From contig CAVUHH010000007.1 in the NCBI GenBank assembly GCA_963741285.1, positions 106,483 through 138,482 of the forward strand: 32,000 nucleotides of DNA, written 5' to 3'. The first letter of the stretch is position 1. Every line of letters begins with the position of its first letter. Origin of the DNA: an uncultured Actinomycetota bacterium (GTDB lineage Bacteria; Actinomycetota; Actinomycetes; Actinomycetales; Micrococcaceae). The notes beneath the pieces are model-generated. The model ran no database searches. It was not told where the DNA came from and saw only the letters and a program-made list of their open reading frames with translations. Shown here piece by piece: positions 3,500-28,640 of this stretch. Position numbers and translations under genes: made by a program.

Positions 3500-4966
3500 A
3501 TGTCCCCGTCACTGAACCCCTCCGCACTGGCGCGCCTCCTGGGCGCGTGGAACCTCGGTGCGGCGCCCGCCTACCGCGAGCTGGCCGACGTCGTGCGCCT
3601 GTTGATCATGGACGGCCGCATCCCGCTGGACGTCGCGCTGCCCAGCGAGCGCGCACTGGCCCAGACCCTTGGCCTGAGCCGGACCACCGTCACGGCCGCG
3701 TATGCGGGGCTGCGGGAGCAGGGCTTCCTCAGCGCGGGCCAGGGCAGCCGCGGCCGGACCGGCATTCCGCACCGGACCGTGCCGGTGAGCGCACCCGGCG
3801 TCGCCCTCCCTGACGGAATCCTGGACCTGGCCTACGCCTCGCTCCCGGCCACGGGCGAGGTGGTGCACCGGGCCTTCGCGGATGCGCTGACGGACCTGCC
3901 CGCGCTCCTGCCCGGCTTCGGCTACGACGCGGTGGGTATTCCCGCTCTCCGGGAAGCCATCGCCGAGCGGTACACCGCCGCGGGCGTCCCCACCACGGCC
4001 AGCCAGATCCTGGTGACCTCCGGCGCGCAGCACGCGCTGAACATTGTGTTGCGGACCCTCGCCGGCAGGCAGCAAAAGGTCCTGGTGGACCATCCCACCT
4101 ACCCAAACGCCCTCGATGCCATCCGCGCCTCCGGCTCAAGGATCATCCCGGTGCCGCTGCCGCCGCCCACCGCTGCGGGGGCTGCAGGCAGGCCGGGATG
4201 GGACATGGACGCCATGGTGGCCGCGCTGCAGCAGCAGCGCCCCGCCATGGCGTACATGGTTCCGGACTTCCACAACCCCACGGGCCGGCTGATGTCCGAT
4301 CTGCAGCGCCGCCGCCTGGTGCGGGCCGCCGCGGCATCAGGGACGGTGCTGGTGGTGGACGAGACACTGCGGGCGCTGAACCTCGACGGCGGAACCACCT
4401 CGCCGCTCGCAGCATTCAGTCCCGCCGTGGTCTCCATTGGATCGCTCAGCAAGTCGCACTGGGCGGGACTGCGGACGGGCTGGATCCGTGCGGACGAGGA
4501 CCTGCTGGGCCGCTTCATCGCCACGCGGACCACGATGGACCTGGGCGGGCCCGTCGTCGAACAGTTGGCTGCAACGGGGCTGGTGCGCTCGCTCGAAGAG
4601 CCGCTCGGCGCCCGGCTTGAAACGCTGCGCGAGAACCGGGCCGTTCTTCTTGAACTGCTGGCCGGGCACCTGCCGGACTGGCAGCCGGAGCGGCCCGCAG
4701 GCGGCCTGACGGTGTGGTGCCGGTTGCCGGCGGCGTCGAGCACTGCCCTGACCGTGATCGCGCCCGAGTTCGGCATCCGGCTGGCCGCCGGCCCGCGTTT
4801 CGGCGCCGGCGGGGCCTTTGAGCAGTATCTGCGGGTGCCGTTTACGCTCCCGCCGGACCAGCTCGAGACGGCAGTCCGGGCATTGCGCTCGGCCCAGGAA
4901 AGGCTCGACGCCGCCCCGCAGCTCCGCCGGACCCTGAAACCGGCCCCGGCCGTGGCCATCGCATGA
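3500..4966 (+). CDS. MocR/PdxR-subfamily GntR transcriptional regulator with fold-type I aminotransferase-like domain
   Basis: 488-aa intact ORF. It has an N-terminal wHTH (LPSERALAQTLGLSRTTVTAAYAGLREQGFL) and a C-terminal aminotransferase-like domain with the PLP-lysine context SIGSLSKSHWAGLRTGW. Confidence 0.85.
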   Translation: MSPSLNPSALARLLGAWNLGAAPAYRELADVVRLLIMDGRIPLDVALPSERALAQTLGLSRTTVTAAYAGLREQGFLSAGQGSRGRTGIPHRTVPVSAPGVALPDGILDLAYASLPATGEVVHRAFADALTDLPALLPGFGYDAVGIPALREAIAERYTAAGVPTTASQILVTSGAQHALNIVLRTLAGRQQKVLVDHPTYPNALDAIRASGSRIIPVPLPPPTAAGAAGRPGWDMDAMVAALQQQRPAMAYMVPDFHNPTGRLMSDLQRRRLVRAAAASGTVLVVDETLRALNLDGGTTSPLAAFSPAVVSIGSLSKSHWAGLRTGWIRADEDLLGRFIATRTTMDLGGPVVEQLAATGLVRSLEEPLGARLETLRENRAVLLELLAGHLPDWQPERPAGGLTVWCRLPAASSTALTVIAPEFGIRLAAGPRFGAGGAFEQYLRVPFTLPPDQLETAVRALRSAQERLDAAPQLRRTLKPAPAVAIA

Positions 4967-4983
4967 CCCGCGAATTCGCACCC

Positions 4984-5040
4984 GACGCGCAAAATACCTG
5001 GCGCACCCGGCATATGGCCGCGTCAGGTATTTTGCGAGTC
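4984..5040. terminator. Long hairpin between convergent genes (candidate bidirectional terminator)
   Basis: GACGCGCAAAATACCTG (4984-5000) pairs with CAGGTATTTTGCGAGTC (5024-5040). This gives 17-bp arms with one mismatch and a 23-nt loop. It sits between the stop of the MocR gene (4966) and the stop of the SRPBCC gene (5070). Confidence 0.45.
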
Positions 5041-23819: not shown

Positions 23820-24907
23820 ATGCAGGCGCGGCCGGGAACGTTGACGACGGCGTCCGGCCGCGTGGGGAGCCCGTCGGCGGCGGGCGGCGGGGACCGTCAG
23901 CCCTCAAGCCGATCGCCATCAGCGCAGTCTTCCTGGTCACCGTGACCCTGGTGGCCCTGGCCGTGGGCCGGTACAACGTTCCGCTCTGGCACGTGGTGCA
24001 GATCCTCGTGGGGCAGGTCGTCCCGGTCCCTGTCGAGGCAACCGCCACGGAGGAAAATGTGGTGCTGCTGGTCAGGCTGCCCCGTGTGCTGCTGGCACTG
24101 CTGGTGGGCGGCGGCCTGGCCATCGGCGGCGCGGCGCTGCAGGCCATCTTCCACAATCCGCTGGTCAGTCCGGACATCATCGGCGTGTCTGCGGGTGCGT
24201 CCTTCGGCGGGGCGCTGGCGCTCCTTCTGGGCCTGGGGACGTTCGCGCTCATCACGAGTTCCTTCGCGTTCGGCCTGGTTGCCCTGGCCACGCTGTTCCT
24301 GATCACATCCGGGCGCGGCGGGACTCCCCTGCTGATGATTGTGCTGGGCGGCGTGGTCACGGGCTCGTTCTTCTCCGCGCTGGTTGCCCTGGTCACCTAC
24401 ATCGCGGATCCGAACACCACGTTGCCGGCCATCGTGTTCTGGCTCCTGGGCAGCGTGGCCACTGCCACGTTCGGCAAGGTGGTGGTGGCACTGATTCCCG
24501 TTGTGGGCGGCGCACTGGTGCTCCTGGCGCTGCGCTGGCGCATCAACGTGCTCTCCCTGGGCGACGACGACGCTGCCGCCCTCGGGGTCCGGCCCCGGCC
24601 GCTGCGCTGGGTGGTGCTGGTTTCGGTGGCCCTGATCGTGGCCGGGGCCGTCGCGGTCAGCGGCGCGGTCAGCTGGGTGGGGCTGGTGATCCCCCACCTG
24701 GCGAGGATGTGGGTGGGTCCGGACCACCGCGTGCTGCTGCCGGTCTCCTTCCTCCTGGGGGGCGCCTACATCATGCTGGTGGACACTGTGGCACGGACAG
24801 CGACGGCGGGCGAGATCCCGCTCGGCGTGCTGACGGCGCTCATCGGGGCGCCTGTCTTTTTTGTCCTGCTGCGCCGGAACCGGGACAGGATCTGGGAAAG
24901 TGCTTGA
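23820..24907 (+). CDS. FecCD-family ABC permease; 5' end unresolved (probable frameshift near 23865-23895)
   Basis: The intact ORF 23942-24907 has FecCD hallmarks (LLVGGGLAIGGAALQAIFHNPLVSPDIIGVS, IPLGVLTALIGAPVFFVLL). However, TM1 (LKPIAISAVFLVTVTLVALAVG) extends upstream of the GTG at 23942, and there is no in-frame start back to the stop at 23777. ATG 23820 (MQARPGTL...) in another frame could join it through a G-run indel. Confidence 0.8.
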
Positions 24908-25643
24908 GCTGGAGGGCGTTGGCTTCGGCTACGGCAGGACGGATTGGGTGTTCCGGAATGTCAGCTTCCAGGTGCTGCCTGGGACCGCCACCGCCGTCCT
25001 GGGACCCAATGGCAGCGGCAAAACCACGCTGGTGCGCTGCGCCGCCGGGCTGCTCGCCCCAGTGGAGGGAAGCGTCACCCGGGCGGCCAGGGCCGGCTAC
25101 GTCCCGCAGGCCCATGGCAGTACGTTCGCTTACCGTGCCCTGGACATGGTGCTGATGGGACGGGCACGGCAGATCGGCCTCTTCCGTTCGCCGGGTGCGG
25201 CGGACCGGGCTGCCTCACTGGAGGCAATGGAACGGGTGGGCATCGCCGGCCTCCGCAGCAGGTTTTTCCCCACGCTCAGCGGGGGCGAGCAGCAGCTGGT
25301 CCTGATCGCCCGGGCCATCGCGGCCGGCTGCCCCGTCCTGGTGCTGGACGAGCCCGCCACCGGCCTGGACCTGAAAAACCAGGTCCGCGTCCTGCGGCTC
25401 CTGCGCGAACTGATGACGGACGGCATGGCCGTGCTCCTCAGCACCCACCACCCGGACCACGCCCTGTACGTCGCGGACCGCGCAGTCCTGCTCTCCCCCA
25501 CTGGTCCCCGGACCGGCGACGCCCGGGAACTCCTGAGCGAGAAGGAACTCACGGCGCTGTATGGCGTCGGCGTCAGCACCGTGCCGTATGTCGATGGACC
25601 AAGCACCCGCCGGACCGTGGTGGTGCACTACGGCGACCAGTGA
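24900..25643 (+). CDS. ABC transporter ATP-binding protein (FepC/FecE type)
   Basis: Walker A GPNGSGKTT, signature LSGGEQQ, Walker B VLVLDEP. The GTG at 24900 overlaps the permease stop by 8 nt. Confidence 0.9.
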   Translation: MLELEGVGFGYGRTDWVFRNVSFQVLPGTATAVLGPNGSGKTTLVRCAAGLLAPVEGSVTRAARAGYVPQAHGSTFAYRALDMVLMGRARQIGLFRSPGAADRAASLEAMERVGIAGLRSRFFPTLSGGEQQLVLIARAIAAGCPVLVLDEPATGLDLKNQVRVLRLLRELMTDGMAVLLSTHHPDHALYVADRAVLLSPTGPRTGDARELLSEKELTALYGVGVSTVPYVDGPSTRRTVVVHYGDQ

Positions 25644-25798
25644 GAGAGCGTCCCGGGAAAACCCACATTAAGTGATAGACGGTCTGTTCCGGGTAGACGC
25701 TCTCTCACTTAATGCAGGAAATCCACAAGCGCTCTCTCACTTTCTTTAGGAAAGTGAGAGAGCGATTGGGAAAAACCCGCATTAAGTGAGAGAGCGTC
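25640..25798. repeat. Cluster of five GTGAGAGAGCG-core repeats in both orientations forming nested or alternative hairpins
   Basis: Forward copies are at 25640-50, 25754-64 and 25786-96; reverse copies are at 25698-708 and 25730-40. There is a perfect 15-bp hairpin (25730-44 / 25750-64, loop TTTAG). An 18-bp perfect inverted repeat (20 bp with flanks) joins 25696-25715 to 25779-25798 and encloses that hairpin. 25640-52 is also complementary to 25696-708. A direct ~114-bp periodicity is visible (GGGAAAACCCACATTAAGTGA vs GGGAAAAACCCGCATTAAGTGA). Confidence 0.8.
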
Positions 25799-25814
25799 CG
25801 GGGGGGTGGAGGGG

Positions 25815-28640
25815 TTAGCCGGTGTTGCGCAGGCCGGCGGCCACCCCGTTGACGGTGATCAGCATGGCCCGCTGGAGGCGTTCGTCGATCTCGGCGTTGC
25901 TGATGCTTTCGTCTTCTGAGGCCTGGGCCGCCCGGATCGCGCCGGAGGAGCTCCACCTGCAGGTAGCTGATGGGGTCCAGGTACTGGTCGCGGATCTCCA
26001 GGGAACGCTTGAGCGTGGGCTGGGCGTCCAGGAGCGTGTTCTCGCCGGTAAGGCTCTGGATCTCCCTGACCGTGAGCTCGTACTCCTCGCGGATGGTGCG
26101 GAAGATGCGGTGCAGCTCCTCAGGAACCAGCGTGGCCACGTAGTACCCGGCGATGTCCAGGTCCGTCTTGGCCAGGGTCATCTCCACGTTGGAAAGGACA
26201 GAGCGGAAGAAGTGCCAGTGCTCCATCATCTCCACCAGCTGGCCCGAGTGGCCGGCCTCGCGGGCCGCCTTCAGGCCCGAGCCCACACCGAACCAGCCAG
26301 GCACGATCTGCCGGGACTGGGTCCAGCCGAACACCCACGGGATGGCGCGGAGGCCACCGAGGCCGGCCCCGGAATCGGGCCGCTTGGACGGACGGGAGCC
26401 GATGTTCAGCGAGCCCAGCTGCTCCACCGGGGTGGAGGCCAGGAAATATGCGGGCAGGTCAGGATCGTCGATGAGCTTCCGGTACCGGTCAAAGGCGCCG
26501 TCGGAGATGGTCTCCATGACGTGGCCGTACCGCTCGCGCTGGTCATCGGAGGTGCGCGGGGTCACGGTGCAGCGCCGAGCCCTGGAGCACCGCGGCGAGC
26601 GAGAGCTCCAGGTTCTCCCGGGCCAGCTCCGGCAGGGAGTACTTGTCCGAGATGACCTCGCCCTGTTCGGTGAACTTGATCTCGCCTTCCAGGACTCCGT
26701 TGGGCTGGGCCATGATGGCGTCATAGGTGGGTCCGCCGCCACGGCCCACGGAACCGCCGCGGCCGTGGAACAGGCGGACCCGGACGCCGTGCTTGGCCGC
26801 CACGTCGCGCAGGTTGCGCTGGGTCTTGTGGATCTCCCACTGGCTGGTCATCACACCGGATTCCTTGTTGGAGTCCGAGTAGCCGAGCATGATTTCCTGG
26901 ACGTCGCCGCGCAGCCGGACCAGGTCGCGGTAGGACGGGACGGACAGCAACTGGTCCACGATCTCAGCCGAGGCCCGCAGTTCCTCCACGGTTTCCAGCA
27001 GCGGCGCGAAGCCGATCTTCGCGTACGGCGACGCGCCAAAGAGGTTGATCAGGCCGGCTTCGCGCGCCAGGACCGCTGCGGCCAGGACGTCGTCCGCGCC
27101 GCGGGTCATGGAAATGATGTAGGTTTCGACGACGTCCGGACCGTACGTGCGCAGGGCGCGGCGGATCTCACGGAAGACGTCGTACGTTCCGTCAGCGACG
27201 CCGTCGAGCTTGATCGGGTGGCCGGAGAGCGGGCGGCGGGAGGCCAGTTCCGATCCCAGCACCTCGAAGCGTTCGTCCCGGCTCAGTTCCGCGTAGCGGA
27301 TGCCCGGGCCGCCGAGCCGGTCCATCAGCTGGCCGACGGCGTCGTGGTGGTGGTCGGCGTGCTCGCGGATGTCCAGGGTGGCCAGGTGCAGGCCAAACGA
27401 CGCAACGGCGCGGCGGACGCGGGCCAGCGCACCGTCGGCTGCGAGCGACGCCGAGTGGTTTCGGAGCGACAGCTCCAGCAGTTCAAGGTCGGTCAGCAGT
27501 TCGCTGGTGGAGCTGTAGTCCCGGCCGTGTTCATGGTTGGAGTCCGCGGCCACGCGCTTGCCGGTGTTGATGAGCTTGGCCTTGATGCACGTGAGCTTAA
27601 GGCGGTAGGGCTCCTGGGCGTTGAGTTCCAGGACGCGGCGGTCCAGGCCCGGGAGCTTTTTCAGGTCCGCCTCGATGGAGTCCAGCAGGCCCTTGTCCGC
27701 ACCGGCCAGCGAGGTGGAGTTGGACAGGATGGAGATCAGTTCGTCCATCATCGCGATGCTGATGCGGACGGCGTGCTGGTTCTGGATCTGCAGGATTTCC
27801 CTGGTGACCGCCGCCGTGACGTTGGGGTTGCCGTCCCGGTCGCCGCCGATCCAGGAGCCAAACCGGATGGGGGCGTCCTGGGACGAGAGGCTGACGCCGT
27901 GCTCGCCGAGCAGTTCCGAGAAATCCGACAGCATCTCAGGCATGGCGTCGGTCAGGATGCCGCCGAGGTAGTAGATGGCGTTGCGGGCCTCGTCCACCGG
28001 GGTGGGGCGCACCTGGCGCAGCTCGTCCGTCTGCCACATCTGGTCGATGACCTCGGACAGCTGGCGGTCCTGCCGGCGGCGGGCGGTGGTGCCTTCCTTC
28101 GTGGATTCGGACAGCACATCGGAGAGCTTGCGGATCTTGTCCAGCACGGAACGGCGCGAGGCCTCGGTGGGGTGGGCGGTGAAGATGGGGCGGACGTCCA
28201 GCCCGTTGACCACTTCCTGCAGCCGTCCGGGTCCCGCCTGGGCGGCGATGTCGGCGACGGCCTTGGCCAGCCAGCCGTCCTTTTCCTGCCGGGTCCGCAG
28301 GCGTGCGGACGCGGTGGACCTGTTCGGCCGCGTTGGCGAGGTGGAAGTAGAACGCGAACGCGCGCACCAGGTCGGTGGCCTGCTCAATCGGCAGGGAGCC
28401 GAGCAGTTCGCGGACCTGCTCGACGACGTCGTGCGCGCTCCAGGGCCCGGTGGCGTCAGCTCCGCCGCGGGCCGCTTCCTTGGATTCCTTGGTGAGGAGG
28501 CGGACCTGCTCCACCAGGTCCAGGAGCTCAGGGCCGTGCTGGCGCACCAGGGATTCGCCCAGCAAGGAGGTGACGCGCCGGACGTCGGCCCTCAGTTCAG
28601 AGGCAAGGTCGGTTGTGGGATTCACTGCAGTGTTAGCCAT
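25815..28640 (-). pseudogene. ppc: Phosphoenolpyruvate carboxylase, split over four frame segments as read (three frameshifts)
   Basis: The N-terminus [28 protein letters not shown] starts at ATG 28640. It contains [31 protein letters not shown] and [13 protein letters not shown], and the canonical C-terminus [15 protein letters not shown]-stop (TAA, 25815-25817 on the plus strand). Frame changes lie near 28298-28310, 26560-26570 and 25935-25945. Confidence 0.92.

Follow-up and report, generated by a model that had tools for sequence, protein, structure and literature searches.

The spacer between two convergent genes in the window (the whole stretch of 32,000 nucleotides that was analysed) contains a member of a dispersed, modular family of palindromic repeats, which occupies 57 loci in the source genome (G000, Pseudarthrobacter/Arthrobacter). 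Across 61 related genomes, the sequence type of such repeats tracks a DUF559 gene, which suggests a partnership like that between REPs and RAYT, with a different protein in the partner role. We infer that the DUF559 protein recognises the repeats. The reading that it is the partner of a modular repeat family, recognises the core of its own family, and operates in the manner of REPINs and RAYT but with a different enzyme, has in our estimate about an even chance of being correct.

The locus extends from 24861 to 26742. The upstream gene (24861-25643, plus strand) is an open reading frame for an ABC-transporter ATPase (Pfam ABC_tran, 1.3e-22). Its TGA stop codon (25641-25643) falls within the first repeat core, as the initial annotation had noticed. 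This core is part of a decayed half element ('++', 25640-25690, plus strand), identified from the sequence and from repeat and core searches. The first unit of the half element consists of an intact core (25640-25650) plus spacer, and the second contains the degenerate core GTGATAGACGG at 25672-25682. In one congener (G048), the spacer between the ATPase gene and ppc measures 43 bp and holds nothing but the orthologous degenerate '++' remnant. Downstream of the half element lies a complete palindromic element of 2+2 units ('--++', 25696-25798; nhmmer E about 1e-30), with core spacings of 32, 22 and 32 and no gene inside. Its outer left unit (25696-25715, minus strand) comprises the core plus TTAATG and pairs perfectly with the outer right unit (25779-25798, plus strand). 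The inner unit pair (25730-25764) forms a hairpin, with a stem of 25730-25745 and 25749-25764 and a loop of 3 nt. The left variable spacer with its A-tract (25716-25729) and the segment 25765-25778 make up an internal loop that is mostly unpaired, as are alignment columns 22-30 and 76-84. A G-rich flank (25799-25814, plus strand; C, then GGGGGGGTGGAGGGG) separates the element from the stop codon of the convergent gene. Read on the ppc mRNA, this flank is a C-rich tract, and it represents the usual terminal extension of the repeat family. The convergent gene, ppc according to the initial annotation, is present with its 3' end (25815-26742, minus strand; stop codon TAA at 25815-25817, C-terminus ...LRNTG) and is conserved in 61 of 61 congeners.

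The initial annotation had described five core copies in an AT-rich stretch, and both observations hold. Forward copies were found at 25638 (with one mismatch), 25752 and 25784, and reverse copies at 25698 and 25730. Five matches compare with 0.56 expected, and none of 100 shuffles reached this number. The GC content of the stretch is 51.5%, against 67.4% for the window, and the direct periodicity of about 114 bp corresponds to a 46-nt repeat with 80% identity. On either strand, the complete element is predicted to fold into a single long hairpin (-72.5 kcal/mol for the element alone), and the folds of the region 25630-25815 are very stable, with z-scores of -8.0 on the plus strand and -11.5 on the minus strand. 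The outer stem and the inner hairpin, both proposed before, are perfect over 20 bp and 16 bp, respectively. The alternative pairing is real as well (14 bp, perfect, 25639-25652 with 25696-25709). However, the idea of mutually exclusive pairings does not extend to a designed switch, since the alternative costs about 8 kcal/mol and arises because the decayed half copy adjoins the full copy.

Among the four identities that had been offered, a REP/MITE-like dispersed element was the right one, in the sense of a repeat with 57 loci, although neither REP-RAYT nor a recent MITE is an adequate description. Two of the other proposals, a bidirectional terminator and a protein-binding array, may apply at the level of function. 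The genome-wide search returned 164 core matches, compared to 5 for the control, so that the motif is not unique to the locus. The repeating unit of 32 bp consists of an invariant 11-nt core, GTGAGAGAGCG, and a variable, scrambled spacer with an A/T tract. Within an arm, the units follow one another in direct orientation, and the arms are inverted relative to each other. The complete, hairpin-forming element measures about 105 bp; the canonical '--++' form is found at 16 loci, and the number of units varies between copies, with arrays of up to 9+3 units. The arms co-vary, with a score of 0.134 versus 0.099 in shuffles (reached by 0 of 500) and 0.03-0.07 in slid controls. Despite the invariant cores, copies share a median identity of only 79.5%, with 94% for the best pair.

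The distribution of the family is strongly biased towards gene ends. Of the 57 loci, 55 are intergenic, mostly at the 3' ends of genes, and the element sits 3' of about 55 genes. Where genes were called on both sides (n=55), 20 loci are convergent, 32 tandem and 3 divergent, while the gaps of the genome as a whole are 625 convergent, 2228 tandem and 624 divergent. The flanks of 111 termini (core with at most one mismatch) contain about 50% G at positions 4-16, and a reverse-strand stop codon often follows; for the 86 exact-core termini the value is 48%. Each of two converging mRNAs is read in the order stop codon, C-rich tract, hairpin.

The superfamily is genus-wide. Of 61 congeners, 57 contain a two-unit pattern, with as many as 141 matches versus about 0 for the control, and the related elements carry genome-specific cores; the count of the exact core is patchy among congeners. 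In other Micrococcaceae genera the two-unit pattern is at background level only, and a search of plasmid and phage collections did not find the element. Two orthologous sites hold each genome's own subtype, so that the site stays occupied while the core changes. Four sites were compared among the A-type genomes, and all are occupied wherever the assembly permits a call. The copies are old, mostly at orthologous sites, and change their unit number in place. They also coincide with the ends of indels between genomes. Empty sites exist at ppc (G046, G050, G021, G017, G066, G010) and at a second site (G076, G071, G014, G021, G002, G052), at divergences too great for defining insertion junctions. 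As a side observation, the repeats break genome assemblies.

A DUF559 gene is present in 61 of 61 genomes. The source genome has three paralogs, flanked by three different repeat families: one lies between A-type halves and the other two between other families. In this genome, the p1 protein is encoded at C16:414206-415159 and the p2 protein at C3:91928-92839. Genes of the p1 type are flanked by unit arrays with genome-specific cores in all 30 genomes inspected, and occur in at least four genomic contexts. Genes of the p2 and p2' types have complete hairpins on both sides at 20 of 20 loci. The type of hairpin goes with the protein clade, and sister DUF559 clades reside between sister hairpin families. 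Abundance follows the same trend. A cores number 12-103 in the eight genomes with an ortholog of at least 74% identity, versus at most 23 in the other 52 (Mann-Whitney p = 7e-7, phylogeny ignored). All 18 genomes that have a p2 ortholog contain at least 19 B arms (Mann-Whitney p = 2e-6, phylogeny ignored). The protein clade predicts the abundance of the matching repeat, with p about 1e-6 when phylogeny is ignored. Family B is also abundant (54-79 arms) in four genomes without a p2 ortholog, and element halves or copies bracket some unrelated genes, namely a GNAT gene, a DUF2306 gene and an ABC-transporter operon.

The partner gene matches the Pfam family DUF559 (PF04480) with 24.8 bits, above the cut-off of 20.6 (E = 2e-5), and its close homologs are named 'DUF559 domain-containing protein' in the sources. 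The predicted architecture combines a winged-helix-like N-terminus with a Vsr/EDxHD-like nuclease domain. Profile and fold comparisons gave weak matches to 3hrl and to the catalytic domain of I-Bth0305I (E about 0.2-0.3, TM 0.64-0.68 on a poor model). The AlphaFold model has a pLDDT of 56 and is too poor over the N-terminal two thirds. Residues D239, H255/H256 and D265, which do not vary among 28 sequences, are putative equivalents of the conserved Asp, His and Asp of the Vsr/EDxHD nucleases, which are D51, H69 and D97 in Vsr (PMC3239194). In a weak alignment (E about 0.3), they coincide with D196, H213 and D222 of I-Bth0305I.

These features can be combined into a model. The DUF559 protein would recognise and bind the core of its own repeat family, and would probably nick the hairpin or cruciform form. 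Recognition would keep the cores of a genome constant as its spacers drift, and would let the family persist, homogenise and occasionally spread. The mode of working would be that of REPINs with RAYT, carried out by a different enzyme, and the window copy would be a non-autonomous family member. As a side effect, this copy would be part of the 3' end of both convergent transcripts. Its hairpin of about -72 kcal/mol, preceded by a C-rich tract on each mRNA, would probably act as a barrier at the transcript end. A wider generalisation is that DUF559 proteins are sequence-specific partners of dispersed hairpin repeats, each clade recognising, maintaining and occasionally spreading its own family, in a RAYT-independent REP-like system that co-diversifies within the genus. 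We put this forward tentatively, as somewhat less probable than the partnership itself.

The pattern in which the gene implies the repeats would be equally expected if the DUF559 gene were a passenger that homes into pre-existing hairpins. The hairpins could be cis-elements of the host, such as transcript-end hairpins, stabilisers of mRNA 3' ends, or actinobacterial-type terminators without U-tract, which multiplied by duplication and were retained because of their structure. In this view, the DUF559 genes would be selfish, home in or beside them, and have no role in their maintenance. The marked preference for 3' ends and the scarcity of copies in divergent (promoter) spacers, the order of stop codon, C-rich tract and hairpin on each converging mRNA, the very stable folds on both strands together with stem covariation, and the long-term occupation of orthologous sites all agree with this explanation. 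So do the persistence of family B in genomes without p2 and the resemblance of the nuclease domain to a homing endonuclease. However, structure alone leaves unexplained why cores of 11-13 nt are invariant in each genome, vary from one genome to another, and change together at unrelated loci. Moreover, the hairpins lack a U-tract, and arrays of up to 9+3 units exceed the needs of a terminator. A passenger gene would also not be expected in all 61 genomes, nor amid the genome's own subtype at 30 of 30 inspected loci in at least four contexts. On balance, we regard this explanation as possible but rather unlikely.

Alternatively, the units could form a phased array bound by a chromosomal protein with no relation to DUF559, for example a nucleoid-associated protein, a topoisomerase or a regulator. 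In E. coli, BIMEs bind IHF and gyrase, which provides a parallel. The invariant cores, the period of 32 bp (about three helical turns), the A/T tract in each unit and the variable unit number would all suit such an array. Nevertheless, it appears improbable, since no candidate protein was found, and the three DUF559 clades, each embedded in its own repeat type, would be left unexplained. In addition, the covariation between arms favours a hairpin over independent duplex sites.

Classical MITEs, moved in trans by a DDE-type IS transposase with shared terminal inverted repeats, would resemble the elements in their inverted arms (which extend out to GGACGC...GCGTCC), small size, many copies, intergenic location and patchy exact-core count among congeners. 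Yet inspection of 13 canonical copies detected no target-site duplication; instead, the palindrome runs on into the flanks, or one flank is rich in C and the opposite one in G. Neither near-identical copies nor an unambiguous recent insertion was found among the copies compared, and for these reasons mobility in the strict sense is hypothetical. The absence from the plasmid and phage collections also speaks against a MITE. The genes between split halves are those for DUF559, DUF2306, GNAT and an ABC transporter rather than transposases (the genome-wide search covered the Y1 family), and invariant cores with scrambled spacers are unlike the decay from a master copy. We therefore consider this origin very unlikely.

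The idea of a structured small RNA, or of a regulatory switch that works through the alternative RNA pairings, has even less to recommend it. The alternative 14-bp pairing exists, but it depends on the relic half copy, absent from most loci, and is less stable by about 8 kcal/mol. The element is also symmetrical with respect to strand, and its 57 gene contexts all differ. The small RNA suggested in the initial annotation found no support, as there is no Rfam family and the sigma-70 promoter scan of the locus did not identify a promoter-like site. Finally, a REP/REPIN population kept by a RAYT (Y1 transposase) would fit the inverted doublets, the vertical persistence and the species-specific sequence, but can practically be discounted, because PF01797 was not found in the source genome (87% complete) and is present in only 1 of 61 congeners, whereas control genomes score, and the PF01797-negative congeners include complete, element-rich genomes.

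Several known identities were considered separately. The Rfam search returned only eukaryotic miRNA-hairpin models far below thresholds, and literature searches on the core, on Arthrobacter MITE or REP elements, and on DUF559 linked to repeats found nothing specific; for these sources, the earlier statement that no described element was recognised holds. The scan for intrinsic U-tract terminators found no G+C-rich hairpin followed by a T run on either strand of 25300-26100. A CRISPR array, in which unique spacers of about 26-40 nt would lie between direct repeats, does not match the period of 32 bp, the semi-conserved spacers of 21 nt and the inverted arms. A DnaA-box-like motif was rejected as a family-wide operator, since its other genomic copies are not beside related genes. 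A recent MITE burst was dismissed on the identity of the best pair and the lack of target duplications. BoxC/TMECO triplexes were rejected because none of 86 termini reaches 9 triads (mean 2.7, maximum 7), a score that two TMECO control sequences attain in the same test (PMC4666352); the longest homopurine run of the element is 7 nt.

The genus as a whole carries tens to more than 100 such repeats per genome, with RAYT nearly absent (1 of 61). If the DUF559 protein does recognise the repeats, a very large nuclease-like family of 'unknown function' would gain a role, and the concerted evolution of cores within a genome would be explained. There would also be a testable model of persistence, based on protein-repeat pairs that differ in specificity within a single genus. 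In practical terms, the elements place very stable hairpins at many transcript ends, mark indel boundaries, and interrupt assemblies.

Bacterial genomes commonly contain dispersed palindromic repeats, and to our knowledge REPs, with RAYT, are essentially the only ones that have a known protein partner. The BIMEs of enterobacteria are mosaics of REP/PU units in alternating orientation with defined linkers. The elements described here resemble them as modular mosaics of variable unit number at the 3' ends of genes, with a species-specific unit consensus at shared sites, but their units are direct within an arm and the arms are inverted. BOX elements of Streptococcus pneumoniae, with the structure boxA-boxB(n)-boxC, are likewise modular, hairpin-forming intergenic repeats with a varying number of internal modules. 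We know of no partner gene for them; sequence and host are unrelated, and the modules here are symmetrical on both arms.

The BoxC/TMECO fold consists of a C-rich stem of 9 nt, a loop, a G-rich stem of 9 nt, a 3-nt loop, and a mirror-repeat G-rich third strand, with about 9 purine-motif triads (PMC4666352). The present family shares with BoxC, PIT and TMECO the intergenic location, the hairpin arms rich in pyrimidines (CTCTC) and purines (GAGAG) with a G-rich tract after them, the absence from plasmids and phages, and the link to intergenic rearrangements between strains (PMC4666352). In contrast to them, it lacks the mirror-repeat third strand, and its elements are three times longer, each consisting of several units. 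Homing endonucleases of the EDxHD type, such as I-Bth0305I, are encoded by mobile genes, either free-standing or carried by introns (PMC3239194). The DUF559 protein is similar, by a weak match, in its predicted Vsr-like nuclease domain with putatively equivalent Asp/His/Asp positions and in its predicted N-terminal DNA-binding region, but its gene has no intron or intein and sits between dispersed hairpin repeats.

REPs and REPINs are palindromic intergenic sequences in inverted doublets that flank a usually single-copy RAYT gene (PMC3116915, PMC3337134; bioRxiv 10.1101/2021.07.10.451892). The family described here has the same short palindromic intergenic repeats, arranged as inverted doublets that form a hairpin, in tens to hundreds of copies, with long vertical persistence at orthologous sites, lineage-specific sequence and a gene flanked by repeats. 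It differs in that each arm strings together a variable number of 32-bp units in tandem, while REPs are single, and in that the gene flanked by the repeats encodes a DUF559 protein with a Vsr/EDxHD-like domain, whereas a Y1 transposase was not found in the source genome.

The intergenic stretch between the ABC ATPase gene (24861-25643, Pfam ABC_tran) and the convergent ppc gene, whose stop codon is at 25815-25817, contains one canonical full copy of a repeat element (25696-25798), preceded by a decayed half copy (25640-25690) that immediately follows the ATPase stop codon. With the orientation of the repeat units written as '+' or '-', the canonical form is '--++' and the half copy '++'. The initial annotation described five core copies, and the 13-mer AAGTGAGAGAGCG indeed occurs five times in 25638-25796 with at most one mismatch, three times forward and twice reverse; in the shuffled window, the mean is 0.56 and five copies are never reached. 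The first core contains the TGA of the ATPase gene, as had been noted. A repeat finder recovers the described pairings as an inverted repeat of 49 nt (25696-25744 with 25750-25798, 86% complementarity), within which there are perfect sub-stems of 20 and 16 bp, and the alternative pairing of 25639-25652 with 25696-25709 is a perfect 14 bp. The reported 114-bp periodicity is due to a direct repeat of 46 nt with copies 114 bp apart, and the AT-richness is reflected in a G+C content of 51.5%, versus 67% for the window. The suggestion of mutually exclusive pairings stands only in part: the pairings are real, but the forced alternative fold is about 8 kcal/mol worse (-84.9 versus -92.6), and the alternative pairing exists because the full copy and the decayed half copy adjoin.

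The same spacer varies among the 61 related genomes (congeners). In G048 it measures 43 bp, and contains a degenerate counterpart of the half copy and nothing else of the element. In G075 (locus L161) it holds a 427-bp element with about nine '-' and three '+' units, which illustrates the extent of array expansion. On the side of the ppc stop codon, the terminal 20 nt of ppc, with the stop codon, are tandemly triplicated in G044 (L148), and in G041 (L152) an 18-nt G-rich segment from the end of the element occurs four times in tandem.

In '+' reading, the 32-bp unit consists of the core GTGAGAGAGCG, TC with a few G/C, a tract of A4-5 (sometimes T), and CCCRCRTTAA. On both strands, the fold is far more stable than that of shuffled sequence (z of -8.0 and -11.5). 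Alignment of 24 canonical copies, taken from G000 (the genome that contains the window) and other species, shows invariant cores and a spacer that varies almost freely. Over the full palindrome, 83.7% of the cells are paired, and both-sided changes occur at 21 pairs. The covariation score is 0.134, versus 0.099 for shuffles (none of 500 reaches the score) and 0.03-0.07 for slid controls. Covariation is concentrated beside the inner core (columns 31-36 with 70-75), and an internal loop is made up of the A/T tracts (columns 22-30 with 76-84). The flank outside the outermost core, typically GGGGGTGGGG, is about 50% G, and a reverse-strand stop codon often follows it. Converging mRNAs therefore each read a stop codon, a C-rich tract and a long hairpin. 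No U-tract terminator was found in 25300-26100 on either strand, a scan of the window locus found no sigma-70-like promoter, and there was no Rfam family match for the element.

The motif is not unique to this locus. The genome-wide search proposed earlier returned 164 core matches in G000 (4.45 Mb, 65.9% G+C, 87% complete, 25 contigs), versus 5 for the reversed control, and a profile built from canonical copies detects 57 loci. The '--++' form is the most frequent (16 loci); its cores are spaced by 32, 22 and 32 bp, and its palindrome spans about 105 bp. The other forms are 1+1, 3+2 and 2+3 units, and half elements. Judged by gene calls from a crude GC3-based method, 55 of the 57 loci fall between genes. 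Among the 55 loci with a called gene on both sides (two at contig ends were omitted), 20 are convergent, 32 tandem and 3 divergent, against 625, 2228 and 624 background gaps, and the elements are thus placed at the 3' ends of genes and away from promoter regions. Some loci are clustered, with seven in 17 kb (contig C24:320044-337027) and four in 14 kb (C7:162914-176663). The best pair of copies is at most 94% identical (median 79.5%), and no target-site duplication is visible in 13 canonical copies and their flanks.

The exact two-unit pattern is confined to records of Arthrobacter, Pseudarthrobacter, Paenarthrobacter and Specibacter. Among the congeners, the exact core is unevenly distributed: five genomes have 102, 41, 30, 7 and 7 copies, and the rest 0-4. 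A generalised two-unit pattern with many core subtypes (for example GTGAGCGAGCG, GTGAGCGGGCG, GTGATGGGGCG and GTGAGGGAGCG) is found in 57 of the 61 congeners, with up to 141 matches versus about 0 in the control; it is at background level in other genera of the family, and has zero matches in a plasmid and a phage collection. Two orthologous sites, downstream of ppc and at G000 C7:162914, are occupied in most species, in each case by that species' own subtype; in a few genomes the spacer is short and empty. Within a genome, the subtype is concordant between both sites. The evolution of the element is thus concerted and genome-specific. At the second site, G001, G046, G022 and G024 (L195, L200, L203, L204) carry a different palindromic repeat of the GTTCGCCGGAAAC type.

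In genomes with the subtype of the window (A-type), each of four neighbouring sites carries an element wherever the assembly permits a call, at one of them with 1+1 in place of 2+2 units. Differences between genomes terminate at element edges. In G044 (C4:154150-159400, L262), a 4.8-kb operon for an ABC transporter and a luciferase-like monooxygenase lies between two direct element copies, and the G000 counterpart is a single copy (C7:171481-171585); in G005 a 1.9-kb gene is missing, and the breakpoint coincides with an element edge. Several contigs of G041 and G044 also terminate at elements. Overall, the copies are old and have for the most part been inherited vertically, with constant cores and drifting spacers. 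Hairpin structure alone does not explain this combination, and it is therefore likely that a sequence-specific trans-acting factor acts on the cores.

A candidate is encoded within the repeats. In G000, a DUF559 gene (p1, 318 aa, C16:414206-415159, Pfam DUF559) is bracketed by three '-' and three '+' units, and this 1.2-kb block of arms, gene and arms is the sole part common to G000 and two Arthrobacter genomes with other context. Genes of p1 type are present in 61 of 61 genomes, in at least four genomic contexts, and all 30 inspected loci have flanking unit arrays of the genome's own core, '-' upstream and '+' downstream. Two further DUF559 paralogs of G000 have other palindromic repeats on both sides. 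The first, p2, is flanked by family B, a hairpin of about 65 bp (C3:91859-91923 and 92904-92968) dispersed over about 40 loci genome-wide, with arms ending in AAGTGACCCCGCG / AAGTGACCCCGCGTTGC (75-82 arm matches in G000 versus 0-1 in the control); it is abundant in many congeners, with up to 162 matches. The third paralog is flanked by the rare family C (C12:3822-3851 and 4957-5014), of which a second pair, 1.1 kb apart, lies at C3:45168-45225 and 46342-46371. Complete hairpins are present on both sides of p2-type (8 loci) and sister-clade (12 loci) genes, and the hairpin type tracks the protein clade. In all clades, a perfect DnaA-box-like CTGTGGATAAC is found 45-60 nt upstream of the DUF559 start codon (C16:415197 and C3:92877 in G000; L209-L257); other exact copies in G000 cluster in oriC-like regions (C10:179.6-180.1, 235.4-235.8 and 261.8-262.9 kb).

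The C-terminal domain of the protein, for which alone the structure model is confident, matches DUF559. It weakly matches the DUF559 crystal structure 3hrl and the I-Bth0305I catalytic domain 3r3p (profile E about 0.2-0.3), and fold comparison with both gives TM values of 0.57-0.68 on target. D239, H255/H256 and D265 are invariant in 28 sequences, and align to the catalytic Asp, His and Asp of Vsr/I-Bth0305I (PMC3239194). Public names of close homologs are just 'DUF559 domain-containing protein' or 'endonuclease domain-containing protein'.

Orthologs of p1 with at least 74% identity are found in only eight genomes, which have 12-103 A-type cores each; the remaining 52 genomes have at most 23, and mostly 0 (Mann-Whitney p = 7e-7, Fisher p = 6e-8, both ignoring kinship among genomes). 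Housekeeping-gene identity to G000 is flat over the genus (about 79-90%), and the genomes closest by ppc, G008 and G052, have neither the p1 ortholog nor the abundant repeat (8 and 1 cores). Likewise, a p2 ortholog is present in 18 genomes, every one of which has 19 or more family B arms, kinship again being ignored; of the 42 without one, half have at most 4, and a few up to 79. DUF559 genes and repeats are thus associated both physically and phyletically.

Several known partners and elements can be dismissed: the search for a Y1 transposase, as in REP-RAYT systems, gave no match in G000 and a match in only 1 of 61 congeners, the genes between split element halves are not transposases, and the definition of BoxC/TMECO (PMC4666352) does not describe the element, with 9 triads at 0 of 86 termini. 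The main rival explanation treats the hairpins as transcript-end elements, into which the DUF559 genes home as passengers. The association runs one way (genomes with the gene have the repeats), which fits passengers and cognate proteins alike. In the best-supported reading, the window copy lacks a gene of its own but belongs to a repeat family in which the embedded DUF559 gene encodes the cognate protein. This protein would recognise the repeats, and may have a part in their spread. A literature search found no paper on this Arthrobacter repeat, nor on any partnership between DUF559 proteins and repeats. The proposed system would operate in the manner of REPIN/RAYT, with another enzyme taking the place of the RAYT.
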